Both the position numbers and the translations under genes were made by a program. Of a stretch of DNA of 12,551 bases, positions 1,698 to 4,600 are shown one piece after another. The stretch comes from Promethearchaeota archaeon. Lineage in GTDB: Archaea; Asgardarchaeota; Thorarchaeia; Thorarchaeales; Thorarchaeaceae. Position 1 is the first letter of the stretch; each line of letters starts with the position of its first letter. The notes below the pieces were generated by a model, which saw only the letters and a program-made list of their open reading frames with translations, did no database searches and was not told the DNA's origin. Location of the stretch: the NCBI GenBank assembly GCA_048939765.1, contig JBHLPF010000064.1:1-12551 (forward strand), written 5' to 3'.

Positions 1698-4600
1698 CTA
1701 TTTCTTCTCTGAATCAATGCTCTTCAAAAGCTCATCAACTAGAGCCGCCGGTAGATTACGTGCCTGTTTCACGATGGACTCAATCTCTTTCTTTGGGAGT
1801 CCTCTCTTTTTCAGCTCGTTTCTGAGGTCCTCAATATCCATTTCACTAAGCCTATCCTCGAACTCTTCAATAGCTTCTTCTACGGGGGCAAGTCCCTCCA
1901 CTTCTTGAAGGAATTCCGAAACTAGGTCTCTTGGAACCTTCTTGGCTTGTTCAAGAATCTTCTCTATCTCTTCCTCTGGTGTTCCCTTTATGAACAGTCT
2001 ACCTCGAAGCGCAACCAGCTCATCCTCTGTCATAGTTTCAGGAGGTTCTGGTTTCTTCTTAACTTCGTGATCCTCTCTAAATCCTTCCAGCAGTTCCATT
2101 GCCAATGCTCTAGGCACACCCTTGGCTTGATCAAGAATCTTCTCTATCTCCTGAAGGTCTGCTCCTTCTTCTCTAAGTTGCACCCTGAGCATTTCGATTT
2201 CTGAGTCAGTAAGATATGCGACATCCTCCTTTGTTTCATGCATGTCGACAGCTTGCCCTACGCCCTTCAGCAGCATTTCCCCTACATCCTTAGGCAGCTG
2301 TCTTGCCTGTTCAATCAATGAATCAACTTCGTGAATTGGAAGTCCTCTAGCTACCAGCTGGGAGCGCATTTCAGTAAGCTCTGCCTCTGTGAGACGTCCT
2401 TCAGGTGTTTTCTCAATCTCTGCCCATTCAGTTGGTTCGCTTATTCCGTAGATTTGTGCAAGGGGTCTGCTGTCTTTCACCTCTCCGCCAATCAGGCTGA
2501 TTCTCTGGTGACGTACCTCTTCAAGAACCTCTTCCACAGTTGTATTCCTTTCCTGGGCAATTCGAACAGCTTCCTGTGCAATAACTTCCCGAGCAAAGGA
2601 AACTTGCTCGCTTTCCTTCATTTTCGATATTGCTTGTCTGAACTCCTCAAGCTCTTCTGGTGTCATATCGGTGAGTAGTGAAAGGTCAATGATCATTTCC
2701 TCAATTACTGGAATATCAATAGTGATGGGCTCAGCTGCAAGACCTTCGATTCCCCTTGAGAGACCTATAGGTTTACCCATTTCATTGAATAGCTCAGAAA
2801 CAAGCTCGTGCCTGCTTTTTATCGTCTTGTCAGATTTGGGTACCTTGCCTCGTGCCAGCTGTTTCAGCATGGCGGAGATTCTTCTGACCATTTTCGGAAC
2901 CTTGAGAATCCTCCTCCAGAATACACCAATCAGCGCGAGTGCGACGATGAATGCAGGCCCAAAGGTCAGCATATTCTGAACCAATATATCAGTATCAGAT
3001 GGGCTTACAGATATGGTGAATTGTATGATCTGTGTTTGGAAGTTGGTTCTATTAACGACAATATCGAACTCAGCTGTGCCCGTGCTCCTCAACGCAACAA
3101 GAGTGATAATATAGTGGCCATCTGCACCAGCCGGAGTTATGGTTTTGATATCTAGATATGGATCAATGTCGTCTGTGATTATAATGTTGGCATCAGTTAT
3201 GCCCTCTGAATTGTGACCTGGCCAAGCATCATAGTAGATTACTTCGAAAGATATCTCCTGATTGTACAACAGTGATCGGACTGAGCCGCCAGTTATGTCC
3301 AATCCTGTCGGAATCTCGATGATTTCGATTTCAAAAACCAAGCTAGCTGAAGTCCGATTTTCAAGAGATAGGGTAATGGTGAAAACAAACTGGTCAAACA
3401 ATTCCCAATCATTTGAATCAAAGTTGAAGGTGTAGGTTCCCATTTGTGTACCTTGAATTTCGAGTTCCCTCTCAAAGAATCCTGGTCCAGAATAAAGGGC
3501 TGTAACAATGGTCGCACCAGCAATGCCTCTATTCAGGTATGTATCATTATAGAGAATAGGAACCATTAATGCCTCACCGTAAGGAACATGTAATAGAGTC
3601 CCGCTCTCATCTCCGAAATAGTAGGATGATGCTACTATCACTGCTTCAGTTGGCGCAGGTTCGACACGAAAAGTAATGCTACTTTCTGAGTCATCATAGT
3701 TGAGCTTGCTAAATCCAATCGATATGCGATAGGTTCCAGGTCTCACCAACGTCGTATTCACAGGAATACTATAGACTCCATTACCCTGTTGTAAGAGGAC
3801 ACCAGAGCCAAGAGCCCATGAGAATGATGAGTCTGCATCAATTATGCCAATTTCGTTATACAGGTCTTGATATGTCACGTTTATGATGCCGCTCCATCCC
3901 CAATTGATACTCATATATCCTGGTGCAAGAGTAGTGGTTGGCAAATTCCTTATGACCATTACAAGTGAATACACCGCCTCAGTGAAGTTGCGCCCTATAG
4001 CGTTGGCTGTTATCCTGAAATTATGGATTGTAGCTGTTGTAAGAGATGTATCGAAGTCGAAGTAGAAATATCCTGGCCCTCCAATTGATGAACCGTTTAT
4101 GAGCGTACCATTTGCTGCCAGTTCAGGAGAATACCACGTTAAGCTGCATGTTGGGATAGTCATGTTCGCCGCTGGAATCACTACGTAGACTCCAATCCTA
4201 ACTATTTGCGACCAGTTGATTGATGTGTATTGGTAGGTGCTTGTGAGGACATCCGGTTCGAGCTCAAGTAGGATTTGTGTGACGGTCATAGTGAGAGCAA
4301 GAGAAGCTGAAGTGTAGTTTTGCTTTGAGGCACTGATAGTGATTTGATAGGATATGGTTTCAGCAAGCGTGGTGGATATAGTAAACCAATAGTATCCCGG
4401 CATACCTGATACATCAGCTAGACTGATGTTACTACCAAAGTCCCAATTTGCATAAATGGTAGCTCCATCTACAAATATATCGCTTAACGTGTCTTTCAAA
4501 AAGACTGTAATGTTCTTCGCGCTTTGTTGATTCACGTTGAAAGAATACAAACCATCTTCGGGTGCCAAGTCCATGGGCCGTGGAAGCAGCCTGAATACAA

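Follow-up and report, generated by a model that had tools for sequence, protein, structure and literature searches.

The window, by which we mean the whole stretch of 12,551 nucleotides analysed here, is the complete contig C30 of a Thorarchaeota metagenome-assembled genome (3.37 Mb, 88.5% complete), and it carries on its minus strand the gene of a giant type I surface glycoprotein (Table 1). We found that the predicted cytoplasmic tail of this protein ends in an array of four units of about 50 residues, each predicted to be a three-helix bundle, and that these units form an undescribed domain family almost confined to Thorarchaeia. A preliminary description, made from the sequence alone, had read the array as tandem UBA-like repeats on an intracellular interaction platform. 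The repeats and their predicted fold were borne out, and ubiquitin-binding UBA domains proved very unlikely. We lean, with modest confidence, towards the units being lineage-specific, multivalent protein-docking knobs that engage a cytoplasmic partner.

The array occupies positions 1701-2396 (minus strand), which is exactly the final 232 residues of the giant open reading frame (ORF). Its units start at aa 3387, 3447, 3507 and 3568, with a period of 60-61 aa, and are joined by linkers of 14-15 aa, charged as had been described. They align without gaps at 27-40% pairwise identity, and the gapless BLOSUM62 scores of the unit pairs were 6.8-9.1 standard deviations over 2000 shuffles, none of which (0/2000) reached the observed score for any pair. 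A hidden Markov model (HMM) built from the four units found exactly four units, spaced as in the window protein, in 45/46 giant homologues, so the array is inherited and not a product of chance. The positional pattern reported for the repeats holds in full: relative to an invariant Gly there is Leu at -4, Pro at +2 in three of the four units, hydrophobic residues at +6, +9, +10 and +20, and LL or FL at +24/+25. R, E, K and R, respectively, precede the Gly in the four units; their loop sequences are R/E/K/R-G-L/T/A-P/D, and the family consensus is R-G-x-P. The units are acidic, with mean net charges of -3.0 to -5.5.

An alignment of 111 distinct units from 38 loci served for the unit model and for profile searches. 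AlphaFold2 modelled one unit (R4) as a three-helix bundle with helices at residues 5-17, 22-34 and 37-49 (predicted local distance difference test, pLDDT, 88.5; predicted template modelling score, pTM, 0.64), in agreement with the fold first proposed. The model of the whole tail, made from 36 aligned tails, reached a pTM of 0.32 and showed separate bundles joined by low-confidence linkers. Its parts follow in the order juxtamembrane helix, second helix, mid domain (four helices at tail residues 66-137, pLDDT about 88), disordered acidic leash and four bundles. The units are therefore modelled as independently folding beads on a flexible string, with tethers of 10-15 residues. The idea that the mid domain is an ancient copy of the unit was not accepted; the hhalign match covered helix 1 only, with a probability of 27%.

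The 400-aa tail is predicted to be cytoplasmic, because K/R residues flank the membrane helix asymmetrically (10 in the 30 residues on its C-terminal side, 1 in the 30 on its N-terminal side), because N-glycosylation sequons are concentrated outside (75, against one in the tail), and because full-length homologues have an N-terminal hydrophobic signal and one C-terminal helix. The topology check gave no sign of a tail outside the cell, which supports the intracellular location assumed in the preliminary description. The tail is highly charged, and its juxtamembrane motif recurs in every tail of the family. No description of these tails was found in the literature searched.

A survey across Asgard genomes, an idea of the preliminary description, showed that the unit is essentially confined to Thorarchaeia. 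In the order to which the window belongs, it was present in 72/76 genomes of one family and 1/1 of the other, and 224 other Asgard genomes gave a single weak match. Most of the giant proteins have it once, and the distal gene of a two-giant operon has it four times. Only 119 proteins were matched in a profile search of 1.84 billion representative proteins. Among the matched proteins (cluster representatives), the last unit ended at most 12 residues from the C-terminus in 108/115, and 101 representatives had a single unit. Most matched proteins carried a membrane helix about 130-200 residues upstream of the unit together with the mid-domain motif; this motif was kept in 69/116 representatives examined, many of which are contig-end fragments. 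Neither this genome nor the search of 1.84 billion proteins gave a soluble protein with the unit, and the two short proteins looked up as possible stand-alone soluble forms (P0049 and P0056) were contig-end fragments. The window protein shows the full family architecture, namely a C-terminal unit behind a membrane helix, a basic juxtamembrane motif and a mid domain of the form SKMK..F..EVI.QE.

Nine giant ORFs of this genome end in the unit, two of them with four copies and seven with one. They comprise eight ORFs of 2,521-3,993 aa and a 182-aa contig-end fragment on C28, and are spread, mostly as adjacent pairs, over contigs C30, C75, C57, C58, C106 and C28. Their total is roughly 24,000 codons, about 2% of the genome.

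Comparison of units across proteins gave an identity of 0.50-0.70 for the same position and 0.31-0.41 between positions. R4, at the end of the array, shows the strongest conservation and lies nearest to the single-copy units of paralogues. Since same-position identity exceeds that between positions and R4 lies nearest to the single-copy units, we take the array to result from an old internal duplication of the terminal module whose copies have since been kept distinct. Within the genus, dN/dS of the units was 0.07-0.09, indicating purifying selection. The cassette of juxtamembrane segment and mid domain was present in 73/76 and 1/1 genomes, a distribution that matches that of the unit. Distant relatives of the cassette occur in giants of one other Asgard family, at L082 (G096:C54) and L083 (G052:C15). 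These giants resemble the Thorarchaeial ones in the end of the ectodomain, the membrane helix and the basic juxtamembrane motif, and have a mid domain that is divergent; the ends of their tails are different and lack the three-helix unit. Because these relatives have the cassette and lack the unit, the cassette is the older part, and the unit is a Thorarchaeia-specific addition to it.

Linker 1, between units 1 and 2 (QAVDMHETKE...), had no amino-acid change in three same-genus comparisons with a synonymous divergence (dS) of 0.4-1.2. The paralogous four-unit giant has the VDMHE core of this linker as well, and linker 1 may be a short linear motif.

The four-unit giants are encoded in pairs with one-unit giants. 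In a genome of the same genus (G248:C8:25090-87440; loci L041-L044), two giant-pair operons lie 22 kb apart. Each combines an upstream giant of 5,492-6,554 aa (one unit) with a downstream giant of about 3,987 aa (four units) across a 4-nt overlap. Independent gene calls of two other metagenomes show the overlap too, and over all genomes other than this one the arrangement was seen at four loci; the giant pairs include one at L039:1-21946. In this genome, the two giants on contig C75 abut likewise. The giant pairs are translationally coupled, and the window carries the distal gene of one, whose partner is located past the contig end.

Searches for a known family of the unit gave no Pfam match above cut-off with the whole protein, the tail, single repeats or the 111 units, and no NCBIfam match on the tail. 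Pfam matches below cut-off were scattered over Bap31_C, cwf21, VIT1, RecX_HTH1/2, HAAS and SAP. A sequence profile search of the PDB returned designed helical repeats and an EF-hand hairpin of polycystin-2 only, and no significant single domain; an EF-hand reading of the unit was rejected because its loop is only 4 residues long. Foldseek against the PDB, with the unit and the tail as queries, gave no match at E below 0.6, and the ESM Atlas gave no usable match for one unit or for the juxtamembrane segment plus mid domain. In the fold searches the top ranks went to generic bundles (protein A, paramyxovirus P-XD, KIX), and a CUE-like domain came no higher than rank 26. The units thus form an undescribed domain family.

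Two readings would place the units among known domains. As first proposed, they would be UBA-like receptors for ubiquitin or another beta-grasp modifier, and they do share with UBA/CUE domains (PF00627 clan; archaeal NAC UBA) a predicted set of three helices, a first-loop Gly followed by a hydrophobic and a capping residue, and a similar length. However, no UBA-family HMM came close to its cut-off with any of the 111 units, and none passed with the tail; five units weakly touched UBA_HYPK (best E 0.003). A positive-control profile was built from 28 NAC C-terminal UBA domains of Asgard genomes, this genome included; two of these domains scanned with Pfam, one of them from this genome, matched UBA_HYPK at E 3e-8 and 4e-9. 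When the unit profile was compared with this NAC profile, hhalign gave a probability of 2.3% over 16 columns, out of register. PF00627 itself matched nothing across 121 Asgard genomes including this one, but the control genomes gave no match either, so this result is uninformative. The units also lack the hydrophobic MGF/Y patch that contacts ubiquitin Ile44, its place being taken by the R, E, K and R before the Gly, and their modelled helices have 13 residues, whereas UBA helices have about 8-10. The gene counts point the same way. Ubiquitin (PF00240) was found in 204/301 sampled Asgard genomes, with nearly every family represented: in 204/224 genomes outside the unit-bearing order and in 0/76 and 0/1 (0/77) within it. 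These two families without a ubiquitin match are exactly the ones that bear the unit, an exclusion that involves a single clade and so represents one evolutionary event, not a statistic. In this genome (88.5% complete) neither PF00240 nor an E2 above cut-off was found. The counts agree with Hatano et al., according to whom Thorarchaeota 'seemingly lack true ubiquitin homologues' (10.1101/2021.08.17.456605). Because this lineage alone among the Asgard archaea gave no ubiquitin gene, a role as ubiquitin-binding UBA domains is very unlikely; eight ThiS/MoaD-type genes in this genome keep some room for another beta-grasp modifier, and the reading as a whole retains a very small chance. The other reading, that the units are nucleic-acid-binding helical repeats of the SAP/HeH or RecX kind, draws on sub-threshold Pfam matches to SAP (PF02037) in 19/111 units (best score 18.9 bits, cut-off 23.9, with only positions 2-21 of the 37-position profile covered), RecX_HTH1 in 27/111 and RecX_HTH2 in 18/111 (best E 2.4e-4, under the 26-bit cut-off). 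RecX repeats (PF21982, PF02631), which recurred more often than any other named weak Pfam match of the kind, are likewise tandem three-helix units of about 50 aa. All these matches nevertheless fall under the curated cut-offs and span only helix 1 and the loop. RecX repeats pack as one rigid basic molecule, whereas the units of the window are acidic, which suits DNA binding poorly, and predicted to be independent; a SAP-type basic surface was not found, and the tail is tethered to the membrane. We consider nucleic-acid binding hardly credible. Pex14_N (PF04695), named with RecX as an alternative in the preliminary description, matched 4/111 units (best E 0.011), and neither family gave an HMM match above cut-off.

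A C-cap Gly, then a hydrophobic staple and then a capping box make up a very common helix-capping pattern. We infer that the UBA-like register of the units is a generic capping hairpin of this type (Gly / hydrophobic / Pro-Ser-Thr / x-x-Glu), which also occurs in designed repeats and in unrelated proteins weakly matched by the unit profile. This hairpin probably explains the by-eye likeness of the units to UBA, SAP or RecX. Among the weak matches, P0134, P0140, P0143 and P0162 are unrelated proteins with a tandem hairpin of the form 'L..L...G-h-[PST]-x-x-E-[IV]..I'.

As docking knobs, the role that we favour, the units would act in the manner of known small three-helix modules (protein A, paramyxovirus XD, KIX, Pex14-N). 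The nearest of these are the staphylococcal protein A B domain, streptococcal GA/beta-protein modules, the paramyxovirus phosphoprotein XD and KIX (CBP, Gal11/Med15). We take one terminal unit as the ancestral state; an internal triplication long ago, in the distal gene of a coupled two-giant operon, produced four positionally distinct units, each of them then held under its own constraint. The unit always caps the same conserved tail cassette, which runs from the membrane helix through the basic juxtamembrane helix and the four-helix mid domain to the acidic leash. The paired giants, with a valency of 1 + 4, would be coupled via the units to a cytoplasmic partner or to each other, and the ligand would be other than ubiquitin. 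The preliminary description had suggested a multivalent platform and a receptor in place of a passive S-layer component; the conserved, multivalent 400-aa tail fits a coupled receptor, and the receptor role itself stays conjectural. Several observations weigh against docking. No partner of the units was identified, and no conserved small neighbour gene was seen across genera. The invariant residues L15, E24, Q31, A32 and P36 look structural (core, helix caps) and do not resemble a shared binding site, the AlphaFold2 tail model contains no contact between the units and any other tail part, and the fold matches of the unit are at the noise level for helical bundles. All structural statements made here are predictions.

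The same data were weighed against two other roles. In a homotypic scaffold, the units would bind the mid domain or juxtamembrane helix of the same or neighbouring giants and so build a sub-membrane lattice or cluster. The opposite charges of the units (net -3 to -5.5) and the juxtamembrane segment (net +7) are consistent with this, as are the constant co-occurrence of unit and mid domain, the encoding of the giants as coupled pairs with 1 + 4 units, and the failure to find a soluble unit-bearing protein. The AlphaFold2 model, at a pTM of 0.32, has no unit touching the mid domain or the juxtamembrane segment, but as a monomer it is silent on inter-chain contacts, and we rate a homotypic scaffold as possible, though on the unlikely side. 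Alternatively, the units may be passive, a mass of soluble, charged protein in the cytoplasm with no specific ligand, there to fix topology, to stabilise the anchor of the giant protein or to act as a spacer. The high charge of the tail, the structural look of the conserved residues and the lack of a partner would all suit such a role. A copy number fixed at four, conserved spacing, position-specific signatures, a dN/dS of about 0.08 and a linker 1 without amino-acid change within the genus go beyond what a spacer needs, and make a passive role quite improbable.

Docking could be part of a wider arrangement, which we put forward as speculation with the chances against it: the tail would be the inner half of a Thorarchaeia-specific transmembrane coupling, in which the 1 + 4 knobs recruit a cytosolic effector and relay outside contacts inward. 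Candidate effectors would be a 440-aa protein with a Ras/Roc domain encoded beside the giant gene or a cytoskeletal element. If true, this would be an archaeal analogue of eukaryotic adhesion-receptor/adaptor systems, independently invented in the one Asgard lineage without ubiquitin. Eukaryotic giant type I adhesion receptors (FAT and classical cadherins, integrin beta) have the same layout of a huge Ig-like/LamG ectodomain, one membrane helix and a conserved cytoplasmic tail, which is an analogy of architecture only. In both, the tail spans a few hundred residues and presumably recruits adaptors. There is no homology between the two, and the tail described here consists of folded helical modules, unlike the linear motifs of those receptors. 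Asgard archaea are studied for hints on the origin of cell complexity, and their surface-to-interior wiring is hardly known. At least nine giant surface proteins of this genome share one strongly conserved tail with a predicted folded structure, and the subfamily of the window protein has the terminal module fourfold; together this is a clear sign of coupling to the cell interior, beyond mere anchoring. With a ubiquitin reader very unlikely, a tempting 'eukaryote-like' reading falls away, and what is left is the concrete task of identifying which partner this small domain of 50 residues, easy to express, engages.

Table 1 Features of the giant gene, its tail and its surroundings in the window (aa, residues of the visible protein; tail residues are counted separately)
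Feature	Position	Strand	Remarks
Giant type I surface glycoprotein gene	1698..12551	-	Fills nearly the whole contig; 5' end open
Ectodomain	2973-12551	-	
Single transmembrane helix	2916..2972	-	Hydrophobic core aa 3194-3212; sole hydrophobic segment in the visible protein
Basic juxtamembrane segment	2766..2900	-	Tail residues 1-45, net charge +7; predicted helices 2-16 and 30-45
Four-helix mid domain (predicted)	2481..2720	-	Tail residues 61-140; core SKMK-S-EQ--F--EVI-QE; best-conserved tail part
Acidic leash, mid domain to unit 1	2400..2480	-	pLDDT < 50 at tail residues 158-166
Unit R1	2250..2399	-	aa 3385-3434; predicted three-helix
Linker 1	2220-2249	-	
Unit R2	2070..2219	-	aa 3445-3494; predicted three-helix
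Unit R3	1890..2039	-	aa 3505-3554; predicted three-helix
Unit R4	1707..1856	-	aa 3566-3615; predicted three-helix; terminal; protein ends 2 residues further on
440-aa ORF	266-1588	+	Convergent with the giant gene

The genes around the giants differ from place to place. Those upstream of the two G248 pairs are mutually unrelated, one encoding a leucine-rich repeat protein and the other a small protein with a hydrophobic N-terminus, which by eye we take to be helix-hairpin-helix-like. Downstream genes vary between genera. The 440-aa ORF of the window encodes a small-GTPase domain of the Ras/Roc kind at its C-terminus (Pfam Ras, E 2.9e-13); its N-terminal part, of 270 aa, is without family assignment. 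This adjacency may be chance, because Asgard genomes hold many small GTPases. Five genomes of the same genus, and one of a different genus (52% identity), have the ORF in syntenic position. In G248, a paralogue of its N-terminal part, 164 aa long, is encoded upstream of the same giant pair in divergent orientation.

The giant protein is at least 3617 aa long, this being the visible part, and its same-genus orthologue has 3986 aa. Pfam gave a Laminin_G_3 match at aa 532-700 and a weak DUF2341 match. The ectodomain contains 75 N-X-S/T sequons where 31.7 +/- 4.4 were expected from composition, and this excess points to heavy N-glycosylation. Its net charge is -209, and it has 8 cysteines.

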